64,000 nt of DNA from Candidatus Aphodenecus pullistercoris (GCA_017694495.1 JADIMU010000009.1:3404-67403), one strand, 5' to 3'; counted from the first letter of the stretch, positions 52,321 through 60,639 are shown. Notes: generated by a model not told the origin, from the sequence alone. Program-made: numbers and translations.

Positions 52321-54483
52321 TCAGGGAAGGAGGGCGAGAGAGGCGCGCGTCGAGATCGTCCTCGTCGTCCTCATTCCGTCGAACTGGATGACGTGCGCCC
52401 TCTTGTCGAGGTCGAGGCCTACGATGGTGCCATCCCCGAAGCTCTTGTGGTGGACCCTCGTACCGATGGAAAGGAAGCCCTTCGTCCTGTCATCCTCGTC
52501 CAGGAGTCCGCTGTCCGTGAGCCCGATCCGGCTCTGGGCCCTGTCGACCAGCTCCTCGGAGGGCGGGTTCTCGACTTCCATGAGGCTCTGGTCGATCTCC
52601 AGGAGGAAGCGCGATGGATAGCGCACCAGGCCCTCGTGCCCCATGCCGGCGGCCTCGCTCAGGAAGAGGCCGTCCTCGGCCCTCGTGAGGGCGACGAAGG
52701 CGAGCCTCCTCTCCTCCTCCATCGCCTGGATGGTGCGCACCTTGCGCGAGGGCAGGATGCCCTCGTTCAGACCGCATACGAAGACGTGGGGGAACTCGAG
52801 GCCCTTGGCCGCGTGGATCGTCATCAATCGGATGCGGTCTCCACCATTGGGCTCGTCGCTGTTCGTGTACAGGGCGACGTGGCGCAGGTAGTCCTCGAGG
52901 CCCGCCTCCTCTCCGCAGCTCGTCTCGTAGTCCCAGACGGCCTGCTTGAGCTCGGCCAGGTTGTCGAGCCGCTCCTGGCTGCCCTCGGTGCGCAGCATCC
53001 TCTCGTAGCCGCTCTCGTCAAGGAGCTGGGAGAGCACCTCGGAGGCGGGACGGCCTTGCCAGGAGGACGAGAAGCGCTCCACGAGGTCGACGAGGTCCCC
53101 TGCCCCCGTCCCCTTGAAGATGGCATCCTCCAGATTCTCCCTGAGCACTTCGTACAGCCCCCGCCCCTCGGCCGTGGCCCTCTCCTCGAGCCAGGCCATG
53201 CGCCGCTTGCCCAGATTGCGCTTGGGCCTGTTGGCCACACGTCGGAAGGAGAGGTCGTCCTGGAAGACGATGAGGCGCAGGTAGCTCAATGCGTCCTTGA
53301 CCTCGCTCCTCAGGTAGAAGGGTACCCCGCTGTAGATCGCATACGGCAGCCTGCGCTCCAGGAGGACCTTCTCCAGTGGCCGCGTCAGATAGTGGGCGCG
53401 GTAGAGGATGGCGATGTCCCTCCAGGCGGCGCCGGAGTCATGGAGACAGGCGATCTGGTCACAGATCCAGCCTGCCTCCTTGTCGGCGTCTGGAGCGTAG
53501 TGGCAGCGCACCGGAGTACCCGCCTCCCTCATCGGAATGAGCGCCTTCTCGATCCTCGAGCGGTTGTGGGCGATCAGGCTGTTGGCCACGGCGACGATCG
53601 AGCCTGTGGAGCGGTAGTCCTCCATCATCATGATCGTCTTCACGTCAGGATAGTCCTTTTCGAGGTTCATCATGTACTCGTGGCTCGCCCCACGCCAGGA
53701 GTAGATCGTCTGGTCGCTGTCGCCGACGACGAAGAGGTTGCCATGGTGGGCGGCGAGGACTTGCATGAGCTCGTACTGCTGGCCGTCGATGTCCTGCATC
53801 TCGTCGATCATGATGTACTCGAGACGCTGCTGCCACTTCAGCCTTATCTCTGGCCGCTCGCGGAAGATGTGGAGCGTCAGGTAGATCAGGTCGTTGTAGT
53901 CCAGTGCGAAGCACTTCTTCTCCTGGTAGAGGTAGCCGTAGAAGATGATCTCGGCCGGCAGCGTCGCCGTATCAGCCTTGGCCTTGAGCGAGTCGAGAGG
54001 CAAGGCGATCAGGTCCTTGTAGTAGTCCTTGTCAGTGACGCACTTGCGCACTTCTATCATGTCGCGGGCCTTGGCGTAGGTCATGTCCTGGAGCGTCAGT
54101 CCCCTCTCCTCGTATATCGTGGAAAGCATCGAGTCTATGTCGCTGTTGTCCAGGACGAAGAAGCTCTTGGGAAAGCCCACGGCATGGCTGTCCTCCTGGA
54201 GGACGGCGACACAGAAGCCGTGGAAGGTGGACACGTAGCCCGTGTCGTCATCCCCGGTCAATGCATGGATGCGCTGCCGCATCTCGTTCGCCGCCTTGTT
54301 GGTGAAGGTCACGCACAGTATGTTGCCAGGCATGATGCCCAGTTCGCTGACAAGATAGGCGAAGCGCCGCGTCAGGGCGCGAGTCTTGCCGCTGCCCGCG
54401 CCGGCGACGACGCGCAACACACCCTCCGTGGTGGTCACAGCCAGCCTCTGCGCCTCGTTCAGTCCTTCCAGAAGATCGTCCAT
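52321..54483 (-). CDS. pcrA: UvrD/PcrA DNA helicase
   Basis: AGAGSGKT, TFTNKAA, DEMQD, VGDSDQTIYSWRGA, TIHAAKGLEF, EERRLAFVALTRA. Confidence 0.9.
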   Translation of the reverse strand: MDDLLEGLNEAQRLAVTTTEGVLRVVAGAGSGKTRALTRRFAYLVSELGIMPGNILCVTFTNKAANEMRQRIHALTGDDDTGYVSTFHGFCVAVLQEDSHAVGFPKSFFVLDNSDIDSMLSTIYEERGLTLQDMTYAKARDMIEVRKCVTDKDYYKDLIALPLDSLKAKADTATLPAEIIFYGYLYQEKKCFALDYNDLIYLTLHIFRERPEIRLKWQQRLEYIMIDEMQDIDGQQYELMQVLAAHHGNLFVVGDSDQTIYSWRGASHEYMMNLEKDYPDVKTIMMMEDYRSTGSIVAVANSLIAHNRSRIEKALIPMREAGTPVRCHYAPDADKEAGWICDQIACLHDSGAAWRDIAILYRAHYLTRPLEKVLLERRLPYAIYSGVPFYLRSEVKDALSYLRLIVFQDDLSFRRVANRPKRNLGKRRMAWLEERATAEGRGLYEVLRENLEDAIFKGTGAGDLVDLVERFSSSWQGRPASEVLSQLLDESGYERMLRTEGSQERLDNLAELKQAVWDYETSCGEEAGLEDYLRHVALYTNSDEPNGGDRIRLMTIHAAKGLEFPHVFVCGLNEGILPSRKVRTIQAMEEERRLAFVALTRAEDGLFLSEAAGMGHEGLVRYPSRFLLEIDQSLMEVENPPSEELVDRAQSRIGLTDSGLLDEDDRTKGFLSIGTRVHHKSFGDGTIVGLDLDKRAHVIQFDGMRTTRTISTRASLALLP

Positions 54484-54510
54484 GTCCTGATGATAGCACT
54501 GGGCCGGACA
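54483..54510. repeat. 28-bp direct repeat, copy A
   Basis: TGTCCTGATGATAGCACTGGGCCGGACA, identical at 59200-59227. Confidence 0.95.
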
Positions 54511-54592
54511 TGCGGGAAAGGCAGGGCGGACAGCAGGAATATCTCACAGCCGATGTATTGAAAAGTAATCCAAAATATATTACCATTCAAAC

Positions 54593-54859
54593 ATGAGATA
54601 CGAAGCCAGGATGTCCGCCAAATTCGAGAAAGTCATAAAGCAGATGCCGGCAAATGCAAGACAGACGCTGTATCGACTTGTTGACGACATCAAGGCCTCA
54701 GGACCAGTGCAACCTGGATACCACAACTACAGCAAACTTGGCAAGAATACTTATCATTGCCATCTTGCTTATCGCTGGGTTGCCTGTTGGCGAAATGAAA
54801 AGGGAAAGCTGATTGTGGAGGTGGAATATGTTGGTAGTCGTGAGAAAGCCCCATACTGA
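54593..54859 (+). CDS. RelE/HigB-like toxin
   Basis: 88 aa basic protein, YHCHLAYRWVACW..EYVGSRE; promoter TTGAAA-N17-TACCAT-N6-ATG. Confidence 0.75.
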   Translation: MRYEARMSAKFEKVIKQMPANARQTLYRLVDDIKASGPVQPGYHNYSKLGKNTYHCHLAYRWVACWRNEKGKLIVEVEYVGSREKAPY

Positions 54860-55187
54860 GTTCACTTTGAACGGAAATGTTCCTGCAAAGCTCATTCGGA
54901 CTCTTGTTTGCGAATATGGTGCTGACAATGTAAAGATCGAAGAAGAAGACATGATGAATGTCGATGACATGGATTGGTACAAAGAAGAAGCTGCAAAGGA
55001 TACGCCCGGCAAAGCCCTCCGTTTCTATCGCAGGCTCAAAGGCCTGACCCAGCCGGAACTTGCAAAGATGTTGGGAACCACAAAGCAGTTCATTTCCAAT
55101 CTGGAGAACGACAGAAAGCCGATCAGCAGGATGATGGCGAAAAAGCTTTCTGAGATTTTCGATGTTCCTCCTTCAAGATTCATCTGA
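54828..55187 (+). CDS. HigA-like XRE antitoxin
   Basis: LRFYRRLKGLTQPELAKMLGTTKQFISNLEND; follows the toxin. Confidence 0.8.
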   Translation: MLVVVRKPHTEFTLNGNVPAKLIRTLVCEYGADNVKIEEEDMMNVDDMDWYKEEAAKDTPGKALRFYRRLKGLTQPELAKMLGTTKQFISNLENDRKPISRMMAKKLSEIFDVPPSRFI

Positions 55188-55290
55188 GCTGATCATTGCG
55201 GGTGGTGAGCGGCAAGCGGACAGGTTCCCATCTCTGATTGTGGCGCCCTACTGCCAACCATCATGCGTGACGAAGAGGCAAGGGCGCTGA

Positions 55291-55944
55291 TCAGCAGAAG
55301 GGTATGCGAAGAAGCCTCATGAAATCCTTCTGGGTCTGCAACTCGCTCTTCGCGATGAAATCTATGAAATAATCCAGTCGACCTTTGCCGAGACGATAAC
55401 TTCGCAAGGCGGTAATGTAGTCATGCCGCAAGACTGGAGGAATCGCTACGGGGAGGTATCCATGCTGAAGTAGGATTGTGTTCATCACCAGCCGAGACAC
55501 TCTCCCATTCCCACCCCTGAAAGGATGGATCGAGACCAGTCTCGCATGTGCCTCGGCGGCAAATGCGACAACATCCTCTGTCTCATGAGGGCCGGCCAAC
55601 CACGACACGAAACCATCAAACAAGGCAGGGATGTCTTTGTATGATGGCAGGCTCTCGTCAAGCCCAGTAATGACAACATCGACGTCTCGAAGTCTGCCAG
55701 GGTGCAAGTCTGGCTGGGAGAATGCGACAAGCTCATGGAAATGAAGCACATCCTCTTTCGAGATCGTATTCGACTCAAGCAGAGTGAACATGAAGTCATA
55801 GGCCTTTCCTCCACCGATGGCCTCAAAAAGCTCTCCCAGAGTATGATTGCCGACAGTCACACCGTCTGTGAGGATGATGGCGGTCTCATCCTCTGTGAGC
55901 GTGTTCCCCTCAATGGCATTGGAACTCCAGACCGTCGGAATCCT
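55291..55944 (-). pseudogene. Fic protein, 3' part (interrupted by the tnpB element)
   Basis: RIPTVWSSNAIEGNTLT..HPFRGGNGRVSR; frame continues the 5' part at 58929-59036. Confidence 0.9.
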
Positions 55945-56150
55945 GTGAACTACCCCATCCTTCGCTGATGCTTGGAGGATGGAGCTTCCGGGCTCTTTCC
56001 CTTCTCAGGGCGTCTCGCGGAACGCTTCCATATCTCATACGAGGTATGGAAGCCTGACATCCGCTCCTCCGGAGTTCCCGTATGTTCCGTACGGGTGCAG
56101 GACAATTCATGCTCTCCTGCAAGAAGCAATGTCTTCGCAGCCTTGACGTC
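55945..56150 (-). ncRNA. Probable TnpB omega-RNA scaffold (5' end approximate)
   Basis: Known position over the tnpB 3' end and right-end hairpin; guide would be the flank AGGATTCCGACGGTCTGG. Confidence 0.5.
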
Positions 56151-56507
56151 ACGGTCCTCAGCGTATCCGCAGTCGCATGTGAACATCCTGTCGGAAAGCG
56201 TGATGCCCTCATTGATGGCTCCACAGCGCGGACACATCCTCGTCGAAGGGAAGAACCTGTCTACGACAAGGACATTCGGATTGGACATCAGCTTGCCCTT
56301 CAGCGTCCCAAGCGCACTGTTCTGCACCTGCCTGCCGAAGAGCCCCTTGTGCCATCCTGCGATGTTCTCATCCTGGATGACGATGAGCCTCCTCCCCTTT
56401 GTGATGTCATGGTATGCCTGGTTGGCCTTTGCCCGCCGCCTGTTGGCGAGCTTCTCGTACTCCCTCCTGATGAGATGTCTCGTATCATACCAGCCCCTGG
56501 ACCCCTT
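55950..56507 (-). pseudogene. tnpB: TnpB, C-terminal part
   Basis: KGSRGW, IVIQDENI, FFPSTRMCPRCG..FTCDCG..DRDVKAA. Confidence 0.9.
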
Positions 56508-56529
56508 CATATGATGTGACCTCTGTCAA

Positions 56530-56795
56530 GTACCAATTTCTACTTTTATTGCTCCTTGTATGCCATGTAATTATGTACTTCCAGGCTCTCCAGGCAGACT
56601 GAATCAGTTTTTCAGCATTTGACCACTTTCATATTCATGGATTGGTTACCGTAGGCCAATGGTCCGCTTACTGCCCGTTCCGTTTATTCTCGAGAATCAG
56701 GTGTTTTCCTGTCTCAAAGGGTTCTCGAAGATGGCAAGATCTTGACTGTCGTCAGCCTGCCAGGACAACCCGGAAGCATCTGTTTCCGATTCCTG
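56530..56795 (-). ncRNA. Candidate bridge/seek RNA region
   Basis: ~270-nt structured non-coding region 3' of the recombinase, with stem-loops CGGAA..TTCCG, TCGAGAA..TTCTCGA and GACCA..TGGTC. Confidence 0.55.
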
Positions 56796-57941
56796 TCACA
56801 CGGATGCGGAAGACGACGAATCGTAGTTGCCTGTCATCATCCCCCAGATGAAGCAGGCAAGCTCCCTGGCACATGCAGCCTTTGCTACATTCGTAGCCTT
56901 TCCGCTCTCCTTGAGGCTGATGAACTTCTTCTTTATCCTTGCCGTTCCCCTGTCCGCATAGGCGATGACATCCGGATCCTGTCCTGCCTGCCTTGAAAGG
57001 AGCCTCTTGGACTTCCTGTACAGGTTGGAACGTGCAATAGAGTTCGCACTCTCGCACAGCACCTTCCTGCAATGGCTGTTGCCCGCCTTCGTGATGCCAG
57101 TCTTCTGGATGCTCCTGCCACTCGAGTGCTCTCCCGGACACAGGCCTAGGAAGGAGGCGAACTGGTCGGCGGTCCCGAACCTGCTGAAATCCCCGACCTC
57201 GGTCACCATCACCATCGCCACATGCGTGTCGATGCCTGCGAAGCAACGGAGCTTGCCGACAGCCTCCTCATAGCATTCCTCTTTCGAGAACGCCTCGATC
57301 CGGGCATCGAGCAGCACGATGGCATCCATCAGCCTCGTGACCTCGTTCAGGTACTCGGTGAATGTGATCTGGTCCACCTCGTTGTCGAACTTCTGCCTCT
57401 TCAGCCAGTCCATGTGATTCTGTGTCCAAGTGTTCCCCTCGCAGTACTTCCTGTCCCTTCTGAGGAGGAAGGACTGGATGTGCTGCTTCGCCCTCTTCAG
57501 CTCATCCTTCCTGTCGTCACGCATCCTTATGTAATCCCTGTACGCCTCATCCTCCTCGCTCAGGGGGACGACTTCGGAATAGGAGCCCCAGTAGACGGCC
57601 CTTGCCAAGGTCCTCGCATCCCTGGCATCAGTCTTCACCCTGTTGCCCGCCACGGGCTTGTAGATGCTCGTAGGAGCCATGACATGGCATCTGATGCCGG
57701 CCTTCTCAAGACTCCTCTTGAGGCCGAAGCCGGTTGGGCCAGCCTCGTACCCGACCTCAATCGACACGGGGACGCCCATCTCCTTCCTCAGCCTGTCCAC
57801 ATAGGCGACAACGCTCTTGGGAGCCGCAACTGTGGTGCATTCTGCGACAAACGATCCGGACTGCGGATTGAAGGTGCTCAGCGAATACGAATCCTTATGG
57901 ACATCAATGCCGATCGTTCTTACAATTTCATTGGTTTTCAT
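56796..57941 (-). CDS. IS110-family DEDD recombinase
   Basis: GIDVHK, YEAGPTG, KTDARDA, GEHSSG..GITKAGN. Confidence 0.95.
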   Translation of the reverse strand: MKTNEIVRTIGIDVHKDSYSLSTFNPQSGSFVAECTTVAAPKSVVAYVDRLRKEMGVPVSIEVGYEAGPTGFGLKRSLEKAGIRCHVMAPTSIYKPVAGNRVKTDARDARTLARAVYWGSYSEVVPLSEEDEAYRDYIRMRDDRKDELKRAKQHIQSFLLRRDRKYCEGNTWTQNHMDWLKRQKFDNEVDQITFTEYLNEVTRLMDAIVLLDARIEAFSKEECYEEAVGKLRCFAGIDTHVAMVMVTEVGDFSRFGTADQFASFLGLCPGEHSSGRSIQKTGITKAGNSHCRKVLCESANSIARSNLYRKSKRLLSRQAGQDPDVIAYADRGTARIKKKFISLKESGKATNVAKAACARELACFIWGMMTGNYDSSSSASV

Positions 57942-58043
57942 GAAGTGATCTCCTTTGCATGCGGTAAGGCACGCCTGTTTGGTTTAGACAATGGTATTGC
58001 CGAATCCACGATCCTGCAAATCCGAGGTCACTTCATATTGTTT

Positions 58044-58832
58044 CTTCTGGCGGGCAAGCTTCTTCTGCAGGCCCTTGAGGCGTTCCGGTTCTCGGACTGT
58101 TATGTCGTACTTCTCACCTTCGGAGGTGGTTATCGTCGTCTTGATGCCGAAGTCGAGGCCGATGGCAGGCTTGTTCCCAAGCTTCACATTCCCCTCATGC
58201 TTCGGGATGTAGCAAGTGAGCATGAGATATATCCCTGACGGCCTCTTCAACAGCTTCGCATTGGCGAATTCCGCATCGTCGGGAATCTGGTCCATCCCGA
58301 ACACTCTTATGGGCCGCTTGATGCCTGAGATGTGGAAGGTGTTCTTGTATTTGCCATTCTTGTCGCCCTCTGGACCATGGCAGATCCAATGCGTATCCCT
58401 GTACTGGTTGAGTTCTATCGCATTGTATCCACTTCTGAACTTCAGCTTGCCGTTCCTCTTTCCTGTCTTCCTGCGTTTCGCTGCAAGGGAAGCCATGTCA
58501 CGCTTGAGTGACGAATACACCGACTGGATGAACTTTGCAGGCATTGTAAGCTGGCGTTCGACAGCATTGCCGTCCTTGTCGAGGGATGTGATTGTCCTGG
58601 TCTTGGCGTCAAAGGATTTGAAATCGGACTCTGGAAGTGAGATGAGGTAATTGCATAGCCAGCGGCACTGTGTGAAGTAGTGCCAGAGCTTCTCCTGCTC
58701 TGCCCTGTTCAGGCACTTGAGATCGAGTTTCAGTTCCACACAGAGCGGACGCATCGATGCATGACGGATACGGGTCTCCTTGCCGTGCTCCTTGATGGCG
58801 TTGTTCTTTCCGATGCGTGCCGATTCATCCAT
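58044..58832 (-). pseudogene. tnpB: TnpB, N-terminal part
   Basis: HTH/WED-like region, RuvC-I AIGLDFGIK, RLKGLQKKLARQK at the junction. Confidence 0.9.
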
Positions 58833-58928
58833 AACTTATTGTACCACAGCTGATTGGATTGTCCAATATGAATCTGCGGCAATTCATCTCCACCCTGAAG
58901 AGGATGGTGTCCTCTTGCCGATTCTCTG

Positions 58929-59036
58929 ATAGAAGTCCTTGACCTGGCCAAGCGTGAAGGAGTCGGAGAATGGCCTCTTGCCTTGGATGGCATCCCTCCT
59001 CGCCTTGCACTCTTCAACGATCGCATTCGAATACAT
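58929..59036 (-). pseudogene. Fic protein, 5' part (36 codons)
   Basis: SD AAAGGAG; MYSNAIVEECKARRDAIQGKRPFSDSFTLGQVKDFY. Confidence 0.8.
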
Positions 59037-59199
59037 TGCTCCACTCCTTTGCCCTACAATTCAAGTGCCAGCCAGCAGCCTGACATTCCAGCACCCACAT
59101 GAGACCCGTCTTTGCGCCTTCCTGCAAGCTGCTTGGCAATGCCCTGGCCAACTTCTTCGGCAGCATCATACCAGGACCAGGCCTGTCAGACAGGCTCCC

Positions 59200-59227
59200 T
59201 GTCCTGATGATAGCACTGGGCCGGACA
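59200..59227. repeat. 28-bp direct repeat, copy B
   Basis: Identical to 54483-54510. Confidence 0.95.
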
Positions 59228-59253
59228 GTCAGGAAGCGCCCAAGCGCAGCCTC

Positions 59254-60601
59254 CTACAGCAGAAGGGCCATGTACAAAGGGAGGAAGACGAAGTCATCCT
59301 CAAGCGCCAGGTCACCAGTGTGGAGGACATAGGCAGTGGATGTGTACTGGCTGAACTTCTCTTTGTACTTCCTTATGGAACTCAGCGTGTACCTTGGCCC
59401 TGACTTGACTTCGATTGGACAGATGTTGTGGAGATTCGTCATATCATTCTTCGTAATCAGGAAGTCGACCTCCATCCTGTTGGCGGCATTTCCCTTGTCA
59501 TAGCTGGAATAGTAGTACAACCTACGGCCAGACGCTCTGAGAAGCTGGGCGACGAGGTTCTCCATCAACATGCCCTTGTTGACACCAAACTTACCGGTGG
59601 CCAAGGAACGCATGATGCCTGCGCGCGCCTCCTCGTTGTCGTCGAAGGCCAGTGTGACCAGCAGCCCTGTATCGCACAAATAGCATTTGAGACGCTGTCT
59701 GTCCATGGAAAGGCGCAAGCCGACGTTCGGATCGCTCGAGTTGCAGCACAGGTTCACCAAGCCGGCGTCGCTCAGCCAGGCGAAAGCGTCATCGTTGTCC
59801 TGCAAGCCGCCACCTTTGGCGATGTCGGAATAGCGGAAACGCTTTTCATCGCGCGACAATTCGCTTGGAATCAGATCGAAGATGCGTCTGGCACGTGGAA
59901 CGGTTCCTGCCTTTCCGATGTCCTGGCGGTAAAGATGGATGATCGCCTTCTTGATCCGGTCCACCTCCTCCATGCTGTTGGTCTGGACGAAGGCCTCTAC
60001 AGCCTGAGGCATACCACCGACCACCATGTATTGCCTCAGTCTGGTCATGAGTCGACGGTGAAGGCTTTGCCCAACCTGGCGCCTCTCCTCAAAGGCACGG
60101 CGCGCGGCTGAATAGATGATCTCGTCGCCACAGGCCCAGAGGAACTCCTCGAAATCCATAGGGCCAAGTTCGAGTGGAACTTCTTCAGAAGGAATCGTGA
60201 TGGAAGCGACAGCACTCTGGATGCTGACCAGAGAACCTGTCTCGATGTAGTCGTAGCGCCCATCCTGGACAAGATACTTGAGCATTTCCCTCGCCTTTGG
60301 ATTCTTCTGGATCTCATCAAGGACGATGAGGGACTTCCTTTCGACGAGCCGCGTGTTGTAGTAGCTCTGAAGGAAGAAGAAGAGACCATCAAGATCGCCG
60401 CGGAAAGCATTGAAGTCCTCAGCAAAGCTCTCCCCCTCTTCGTTGAAGTCCACGAAGATGAGGCTCTCATACTCCCTTTGTCCAAACTCACGACAGATCC
60501 AGCTTTTTTCCCACACGGCGGGGACCTTCGATCAGAAGGGTGGTCCTGCCATTCGATTCCTGCTTCCAACGCAACATCTTGTCGTAGATTTTCCGTTTCA
60601 T
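59254..60601 (-). pseudogene. AAA_14 ATPase-DUF4143 gene with a +1 frameshift in an A6 run in Walker A
   Basis: MKRKIYDKML..EGPRRVGK; removing one A at 60504-60509 gives GKSWICREF; LDEIQ, GGMPQAV, PIEVKSG. Confidence 0.85.
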
Positions 60602-60639
60602 AATCAAATCCTATCAAAAAATTATTACAACACAATCAT

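Follow-up and report, generated by a model that had tools for sequence, protein, structure and literature searches.

A fic pseudogene holding a tnpB-only IS200/IS605-family element that in turn holds an IS1111-type insertion sequence in a Sphaerochaetaceae genome

Do three genetic layers that lie one within another, each removable on paper without leaving a scar, form an ordered switch, or are they what two transposon insertions leave behind? The question is raised by positions 55,291 to 59,036 of a 64,000-nucleotide stretch of DNA from Candidatus Aphodenecus pullistercoris (GCA_017694495.1 JADIMU010000009.1:3404-67403, our contig C60:3404-67403). We call this whole stretch the window; it belongs to a 2.07-Mb metagenome-assembled genome (MAG) of 70 contigs. 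A fic gene is interrupted there by a tnpB-only element of the IS200/IS605 family, and that element is interrupted by an insertion sequence (IS) of the IS1111 type within the IS110 family. All three layers are on the minus strand. The initial annotation, made from the sequence, had described this arrangement and read it as one RNA-guided element disarming another, in a possible ordered genetic switch. We find that the nest is real, with edges exact to the base at the positions first given, and that it consists of a fic pseudogene and two elements that are new members of known families. Most probably it came about in an ordinary way, by two transposon insertions one after the other in a single Bullifex-like Sphaerochaetaceae strain lineage of the chicken gut, and is stable.

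The nest is present in a second assembly. Runs X1 to X3 are chicken-gut metagenomes, and their Logan contigs were assembled separately, probably from the source samples of the MAG. X1 contigs lie over the nest junctions at 55305-55984 (0 differences), 55984-57905 (4 differences), 57982-58404 (0 differences) and from 58820 onward (0 differences), and contigs of X2 and X3 also support the junctions.

The outermost layer, fic, starts at 59036, breaks after codon 36 (58929), resumes at 55944 as RIPTVWSSNAIEG and stops at 55291. Its 5' fragment (58929..59036, codons 1-36) ends ...KDFY, and its 3' fragment (55291..55944) runs from RIPTVW... to the stop and matches Pfam Fic with E = 4e-17. Removal of 55945-58928 joins TTCTAT to AGGATT in the frame KDFY-RIPTVWSSNAIEG, as had been predicted, and the same junction exists in natural sequences. 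A search with the 216-aa C-terminal Fic piece alone found an intact Fic protein of 253 aa, P0002, which is 98% identical over that piece, identical to the 5' fragment at its N-terminus, and reads KDFYRIPTVWSSNAIEG across the junction. The exact empty site, GACTTCTAT followed directly by AGGATTCCGAC, occurs in four public assemblies (L147-L150) where window position 55944 is joined to 58929 and both flanks are 96-98% identical to the window. This joint, with its skip of 2984 positions, is found again in Logan contigs of X5, X11 and X17 (the X11 contig is 2,928 nt long, at a depth of 307), and those of X16 have the identical 2,984-bp skip positioned at 55940->58925. In X4 contigs the skip is found at an empty fic site with a one-base difference (TTT for TAT) in the pentamer that precedes the element. 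The TTCTAT-AGGATT junction for which a search had been proposed is thus found, in other strains and studies than the nest.

The outer element (55945..58928, minus strand) is 2,984 bp long with the inner IS and 1,446 bp without it. It starts with CAGAGAATCGG and ends with GTAGTTCAC (...GGATGGGGTAGTTCAC), with no target duplication. The final five bases of the fic 5' fragment, TCTAT (58933-58929), are its target-adjacent motif (TAM). Among genus relatives, 13 copies of this TnpB family have the right end GT(A/C)(A/G)TTCAC, after which each passes into unrelated DNA, and a TAM of the form T(C/T)TA(T/C) precedes most of the 10 other family copies that have a readable left flank. The family is multi-copy and mobile in the genus. 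From the empty sites and the flanks of the family copies it follows that insertion of the element is on the 3' side of a TAM-like pentamer and duplicates nothing, which is how IS200/IS605 elements insert beside their short TAM (PMC8612924).

The tnpB gene within this element is in two parts. The 5' part (58044..58832) encodes residues 1-263 plus one base and contains RuvC-I (GLDFG); the 3' part (55950..56505) encodes residues 265-448, with RuvC-II (QDEN), a zinc finger (CPRC...CDC) and RuvC-III (DRDVKAA). When 56506-58043 is removed and one AA kept, an open TnpB of 448 aa results that reads LARQK-KGSRGW at the join. This protein scores 105.2 bits against NCBIfam guided_TnpB NF040570 (cut-off 100) over residues 41-391, and lies above the cut-off for PF07282. 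Its match to Pfam OrfB_IS605 (PF01385), 34.9 bits over 221-312, spans the join and exceeds the cut-off of 30.5; the broken N-terminal fragment reaches 22 bits, which is below it. The rejoined protein has the split RuvC triad (D, E, D) and the zinc finger of a TnpB, and the element inserts without a scar 3' of a 4-5-nt motif.

The restored tnpB junction is also a natural one. Intact TnpB relatives of 445-449 aa, 83-90% identical, are present in the same genus (four copies in G017, others in G018 and G009), and their DNA at the insertion site is CAGAAGAAGG(G/A)(T/C)TCC. In X3 and X4, contigs with 98% identity to the window read GGACCCC-TT-CTTCTGGCGGGC, the reverse complement of CAGAAG-AA-GGGGTCC, which is the junction that the initial annotation had predicted; the uninterrupted joint occurs in two metatranscriptomes as well. 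The X3 and X4 contigs and the family copies have CAGAAGAAGGGGTCC without a break, and the window has one AA core at each junction. Since the IS lies between RuvC-I (GLDFG) and RuvC-II (QDEN), this tnpB cannot yield an active nuclease, and the suggestion that the inner RNA-guided element has disarmed TnpB agrees with the placing of the motifs. Separately, several tnpB copies of this family in relatives (G035:C5, G035:C9 and G011:C19) have frame changes near residues 255-270, in the A-rich CAGAAGAAGGG into which the IS of the window is inserted. These could arise from slippage-prone sequence or from sequencing error.

The inner element (56506..58043, minus strand) spans 1,538 bp, which is 1,536 bp plus the second copy of the AA core. 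Its layout, with a slash at each edge of the core, is AA/ACAAT-ATGAAGTGACCTC ... GAGGTCACATCAT-ATG/AA. The DEDD recombinase/transposase gene (56796..57941) is intact and encodes 381 aa. The protein matches PF01548 (E = 4e-11), PF02371 (Transposase_20; E = 3e-20) and NCBIfam NF033542 (197.8 bits, cut-off 140), and relatives at 76% identity cover its residues 1-380. The relatives found with the recombinase come from Spirochaetales/Sphaerochaetaceae assemblies, and one same-genus genome is that of Bullifex porci (L069 = NZ_VUNN01000004.1 = G007:C34). The left subterminal inverted repeat (sTIR) of 13 bp (58024..58036) is preceded by 7 nt of the element; the right sTIR (56511..56523) matches it at 12 of 13 bases and is followed by 3 nt (ATG) and the core. 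In more distant relatives AG stands at both ends, and the AA or AG dinucleotide is therefore the shared core. A non-coding region of 290 nt (56506..56795) lies downstream of the recombinase gene, and the upstream non-coding sequence is 102 nt. The sTIRs of IS1111 elements measure 11-13 bp, and the element extends about 7 nt past the left one and 3 nt past the right one (Siddiquee et al., PMC11187229). The DEDD protein with PF02371, the sTIRs with 7/3-nt extensions, the long downstream non-coding region and the lack of a target duplication all place this IS in that group. The family assignments made earlier are right, as are the anatomy and the exact junctions.

The downstream region is predicted to encode a seekRNA (bridge RNA), and its guides were located by aligning the non-coding regions of nine relatives with known flanks and seeking covariation. 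The guide complementary to the top strand (T guide) is a variable heptamer just 3' of the conserved AUCUUCGA. It ends in the core complement, and it complements the core and the right flank. Covariation with the right flank was seen in L068 (CUAAC+UU with AA-GTTAG), L069 (AAUAA+UU with AA-TTATT), L071 (ACCGC+UU with AA-GCGGT), L023 (UAAAAA+UU with AA-TTTTTA), L010 (4 nt) and L070 (5 nt, with G·U pairs). Anchored runs in these six relatives are 4-6 nt long, with a mean of 5.2 for own flanks against 0.84 for mismatched pairings. The guide for the bottom strand (B guide) is a variable block about 25 nt 3' of the T guide that ends in the core and has the same sense as the left flank plus core. It covaries with the left flanks of L067 (GCU+AA), L068 (UUU+AA), L069 (GCAA+AA), L071 and L007 (UUUU+AA), with anchored runs of 2-5 nt and a mean of 3.6 for own flanks against 0.69 for mismatched pairings. 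Our first candidate for the B guide, CAGGAAAA, which adjoins the T guide, was rejected: its GACAG is conserved in all the relatives and does not covary.

On this basis the window IS would have the T guide GAACCC+UU (56717..56724), complementary to top-strand AA-GGGTTC where the real site is AA-GGGGTC, and the B guide GAGAAU+AA (56684..56691), in the same sense as the top-strand left target (LT) plus core where the real site is CAGAAG-AA. The guide complementary to the top strand lies 5' of that complementary to the bottom strand, the order of IS1111-type seekRNAs, in which T precedes B and the two overlap at the core (PMC11187229). A further conserved segment, AAUAUGAAAGUGGUC (56621..56635), matches the donor: AUAUGAAA within it equals the joined ends (right end, core, left end) and becomes AUAUCAGA in relatives with an AG core. 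The IS body and the non-coding region also occur in RNA libraries, as contigs that carry no strand or end information.

How well do these guides fit the site in tnpB? They predict GAGAAT-AA-GGGTTC and the site is CAGAAG-AA-GGGGTC, so that 11 of the 13 positions of AGAAG-AA-GGGGTC match and -1 and +4 do not. No other IS copy compared fits its site so poorly, and the -1 mismatch is directly beside the core. In the genome itself, the ideal 14-mer is matched nowhere with one mismatch or fewer, and at three places with up to two. Near-identical IS copies lie at non-tnpB sites with the same short motif, GAGAAG/AA in X1, X2 and X16, and AA/GGGCTCATG in X2 (AA/GGGCTC). Slightly more divergent copies lie at CCGAAT-AA-GATTCT, CTCAAT-AA-GAGCTT and ATATAT-AA-GGGTAA. 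From this set of sites, recognition by the IS extends over some 3-5 nt to either side of AA and allows mismatches. Judged by its codons QKKGS, tnpB just happens to encode the short motif, and the hit would not be the work of a tnpB-specific device. The genome also has a solo IS 3' end of 106 bp, 94% identical and intergenic (C26:1742-1847), which is followed by AA/GGGGTCAAG (AA/GGGGTC). The right half-site there is the same as in tnpB, and the remainder of the IS is gone.

Several observations weigh against regarding the nest as ordinary and stable. The tnpB family consensus, AGAAG-AA-GGGTTC, fits the window guides at 12 of 13 positions, and this site accounts for 13 of the 56 that, across 19 genus genomes, match the guides with no more than one mismatch. 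At G015:C5:117234-117332 (L040) a 75%-identical IS is joined at its 3' end directly to GATGGAGTCATTCAC, which forms the final 15 nt of a TnpB right end. The guides of the IS type at G015:C5, CCAUC+UU and GGCU+AA, fit AGCT-AA-GATGG in the right-end hairpin (...AGC(T/G)-AA-GATGGAGTCATTCAC). In X5 a loose end has the IS 5' end beside CCGGAAGCTCCATCTTCAAGCGTCAGCT, the other half of that hairpin. From these matches the IS may have some preference for TnpB elements. In addition, excision products of low frequency could escape Logan contigs, from which rare variants are dropped. Finally, tnpB and the recombinase gene have no obvious inactivating changes apart from the insertion, and the events may therefore be recent.

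The first of these points could be taken further, to a targeted antagonism in which IS1111 lineages of the genus, by means of their seekRNA guides, land in conserved multi-copy sequences of TnpB elements (the QKKGS codons and the right-end hairpin) and so inactivate TnpB recurrently. Such behaviour would have parallels. IS4321 and IS5075 target the inverted repeats of the Tn21 family, and IS1111 members land in repetitive extragenic palindromic (REP), attC and Tn21 inverted-repeat sequences. There are two or three cases (the window, G015:C5 and the X5 loose end), and TnpB copies make up, beside their share of the near-perfect window-guide sites, 5 of the 18 AGCTAAGATGG sites in the genus, these five being TnpB right ends. 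By a rough estimate TnpB elements occupy well under 1% of the genomes, so two of about 20 genus insertions exceed chance. Yet without the window, which was selected for this very feature, the enrichment is marginal (P about 0.05, an estimate). The totals of matching sites also equal those of reversed-pattern controls, 56 against 53 for the guide sites with at most one mismatch and 18 against 19 for AGCTAAGATGG.

The flanks of other IS copies speak against recurrent targeting. Within the genus about 23 IS ends have unrelated flanks, with G015:C5 the one exception, and none of the intact tnpB copies with a matching site across the 19 genomes is occupied by the IS. When the 2.5-kb flanks of 80 related IS loci in other genomes were searched for tnpB by tblastn, a single tnpB-like stretch was found, about 1.3 kb past the IS end. 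To the question whether other copies of this IS110-family element also sit in tnpB genes, the answer is mostly no. Some 100 related copies lie outside tnpB, the one exception being in a TnpB right-end hairpin of another genome, and a conflict between RNA-guided elements as a regular phenomenon is not supported. The window guides fit their own site worse than any relative's fit theirs, and near-identical copies occupy several sites outside tnpB. A possible third case of an IS near tnpB, at G006:C30 (L037), was rejected, as its junction is 186 nt past the tnpB stop and beyond the likely right end. Exact-pattern scans of metagenome contigs at the Joint Genome Institute (JGI) gave 0 matches to the tnpB/IS junction and one to the IS right end, which was already known, and we found nothing specific in the literature on IS110-in-tnpB nests. 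Taken together, these results make targeted antagonism rather unlikely.

If the nest arose by ordinary insertion, might it nonetheless have become a reversible two-step switch? In this proposal excision of the IS re-arms TnpB or, while TnpB is disarmed, excision by TnpA permanently restores fic. In its favour are two seamless, in-frame junctions, an intact recombinase gene and the presence of Y1 tnpA genes in the genome. The chemistry of both families permits scarless excision (PMC11187229; PMC13626964; bioRxiv 10.1101/2023.03.14.532601), so that in principle each layer could be reversed without a scar. IS200/IS605 elements move by peel-and-paste with TnpB homing (bioRxiv 10.1101/2023.03.14.532601; PMC8612924), TnpB cutting the vacated donor joint once more, which leads to the element being copied back in (bioRxiv 10.1101/2023.03.14.532601). 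IS110 and IS1111 elements excise as circles (PMC11187229; PMC13626964). The argument that the outer element can be lost once TnpB is broken is therefore sound in its logic, and loss mediated by TnpA would be permanent, but there is no sign that such reversal occurs. A switch would have both states coexisting in one population and a functional restored gene. The contigs of X1-X3, which are from one study, give only the fully nested state; no empty fic site is seen in Logan contigs of these nest-bearing runs, and every empty site comes from other strains and studies. The predicted junction of the IS circle, CATATG-AA-ACAATATG, is likewise absent from Logan contigs, which drop rare variants. An IS1111 element can move from a site only if the flanks there match the seekRNA (PMC11187229), and here the guide mismatch in the present flank is directly beside the core. 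In IS621, excision is the inefficient direction (PMC13626964).

No TnpA can be tied to the ends of the TnpB element. We found no tnpA within the element or beside the family copies, and the element is therefore non-autonomous; it has no Y1 (HUH) TnpA of its own. The suggestion that tnpA be sought elsewhere was partly rewarded, with four matches to PF01797 (Y1 tnpA) in the rest of the genome, one of which has an internal stop and another of which is a 32-residue fragment at a contig end. None of the four is linked to the ends of the TnpB element, however, and a search beside the genome's tnpA genes for hairpins resembling those ends gave nothing convincing.

The fic gene of the nest has itself changed. 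Class II Fic proteins have an N-terminal inhibitory helix, (S/T)xxxE(G/N), and the catalytic motif HxFx(D/E)GNGRxxR. The inhibitory motif is present in the window as SNAIEG (55906-55923), in the 3' fragment 8 residues past the insertion point, and so lies in the same chain and N-terminal to the core. The catalytic motif (55501-55527) reads HPFRGGNGR (HPFRGGNGRVSR), the acidic residue being replaced by glycine, and X1 contigs have the same form. All 45 Fic homologues that were read (P0002 and 44 others) have HPFxDGNGR, with aspartate. The X4 strain with the empty site differs from the nest haplotype at exactly this Asp/Gly codon. The glycine points to relaxed selection after disruption of the gene, and a restored fic frame would therefore not be wild type. 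With a nested state alone in X1-X3, an altered Fic motif, a poor guide fit and no cognate TnpA found, an ordered genetic switch is decidedly improbable. Reversal of either step is chemically possible; nothing indicates that it occurs or is used.

An assembly artefact, in which repeats were chimerically joined in the MAG, is very unlikely: the MAG is in 70 contigs and both elements belong to multi-copy families that break the assemblies of relatives, but in up to three runs separately built Logan contigs that differ little or not at all from the window span all four junctions, and the genome has one full copy of each element.

We therefore return to two ordinary insertions. In the first step a non-autonomous, tnpB-only IS200/IS605 element would have inserted immediately 3' of TCTAT, between codons 36 and 37 of a class II fic gene, an event for which a Y1 TnpA acting in trans would be needed; the boundaries are seen in the empty sites, and the mechanism is that expected of the family. 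In the second, an IS1111-type element would have entered tnpB at the AA core of CAGAAG-AA-GGGGTCC (codons QKKGS), with guides assigned by covariation in a predicted RNA, and inactivated TnpB by separating RuvC-I from RuvC-II. Both fic and tnpB would then be pseudogenes, and fic would later have lost the invariant acidic residue of its catalytic motif. The data fit an alternative order equally, in which the TnpB element already held the IS, acquired at another site, when the composite moved into fic.

As a three-layer nest with boundaries verified by real empty sites, the locus is a clean natural example of its kind. Natural covariation makes it possible to read the target- and donor-binding segments of an IS1111-type seekRNA that had not been characterised. 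This aids the annotation of the two elements in Sphaerochaetaceae, and the set of IS sites provides natural data on the tolerance of guide-target mismatches. The most useful by-products are this reading of the guide positions and the hint that IS1111 elements now and then enter TnpB elements. Systematic targeting of TnpB by IS1111 elements, if true, would be RNA-guided warfare between selfish elements, for which the evidence is thin.

The ends of the TnpB element have further structure. A subterminal hairpin read from the sequence at the left end, AAGAGGA-CACCA-TCCTCTT (58898..58916), is conserved in the left ends of the family. The right end (55945..56144) overlaps the 3' end of tnpB and is a candidate omega-RNA scaffold, with a terminal hairpin at 55953-55984; the candidate guide of this copy would be 55925-55944, in the fic 3' fragment. 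The last 200 nt of the element have a conserved multi-stem fold of 56 pairs, 6 of them with compensatory changes. A size-fractionated chicken-gut metatranscriptome contains a 157-nt contig over 55942-56088 plus 10 nt of a different flank, strand and ends being unreadable from contigs. It has the expected shape for the omega-RNA of another TnpB copy, and may hint at one. An Rfam scan of 55000-59300 gave no match at E <= 1, and hence no curated omega-RNA or bridge-RNA family. Solo fragments of the TnpB right end and omega-RNA region lie in the same genome at C67:8091-8260 (170 bp, 95%) and C1:8840-8881 (42 bp, 93%). Each lacks tnpB and is followed downstream by a different flank; orphan guide-RNA loci and decay products are both possible readings.

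The surroundings of fic vary among strains. A perfect 28-bp direct repeat, TGTCCTGATGATAGCACTGGGCCGGACA (about 40 bp if mismatches are allowed), at 54483-54510 and 59200-59227 brackets fic together with a pair of genes resembling a toxin-antitoxin (TA) system, and one copy adjoins the start codon of a UvrD/PcrA-like helicase gene. Two of the four intact-fic strains, L147 and L150, also have sequence that matches the repeat region (46 bp, 93%), and the repeat therefore seems older than the insertions. Contigs in which the alignment goes back from 59227 to 54600, and a loose end at 59196, were considered as a deletion or circle of the TA-fic block and rejected as artefacts of this repeat, the other copy being outside the stretch compared. 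The pair itself, at about 54519-55242 between the helicase gene and fic, comprises an 88-aa open reading frame and a 124-aa helix-turn-helix protein (HigA/MqsA-like). It is missing in L147-L150, with deletion edges at 54518/55243 in L147 and L150, and at 54545/55230 with ATCTC microhomology in L148 and L149. On the other side, at 59575-60609, a DUF4143/AAA_14 ATPase gene is complete in the window (420 aa), and L147-L150 have a 1,035-bp deletion there, with a fragment of 103-111 aa called.

How do the three layers compare with known systems? The fic gene resembles class II Fic in its Pfam Fic domain, its SNAIEG motif and a length of 253 aa as in its 98%-identical intact homologues, and differs in being split and in having glycine at the acidic position of the motif. 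The outer element resembles ISDra2/IS608-type elements and their TnpB-omega-RNA homing (PMC8612924; bioRxiv 10.1101/2023.03.14.532601) in its insertion 3' of a TAM without duplication, its scarless empty site, its subterminal hairpins, the RuvC D-E-D triad and zinc finger of TnpB, and a putatively structured 3' end that overlaps tnpB, for which the downstream flank would be the guide. It differs from them in having no tnpA in cis, being IS1341-like and non-autonomous, in its TAM of T(C/T)TA(T/C), and in a TnpB inactivated by insertion between RuvC-I and RuvC-II.

The inner element shares with the IS1111 group the DEDD/PF02371 recombinase, the 13-bp sTIRs with 7-nt and 3-nt extensions, the downstream non-coding region, the T-before-B guides overlapping at the core, and insertion without target duplication; like IS4321 and IS5075 it lies inside another mobile element. 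Its recombinase, however, shares only 40-50% identity with most relatives in the databases once Sphaerochaetaceae and related spirochaete assemblies are set aside, its RNA is predicted from sequence, and its host is an IS200/IS605 tnpB, hit in what would be a short-motif, mismatch-tolerant event and not as a dedicated target. With IS621 of the IS110 group (PMC13626964) it has in common separate target- and donor-binding RNA segments, a core dinucleotide common to donor and target, and an expected circle. In contrast to the window IS, IS621 encodes its RNA upstream and has no subterminal inverted repeats, and the order of the two guides is reversed in the IS1111 group.

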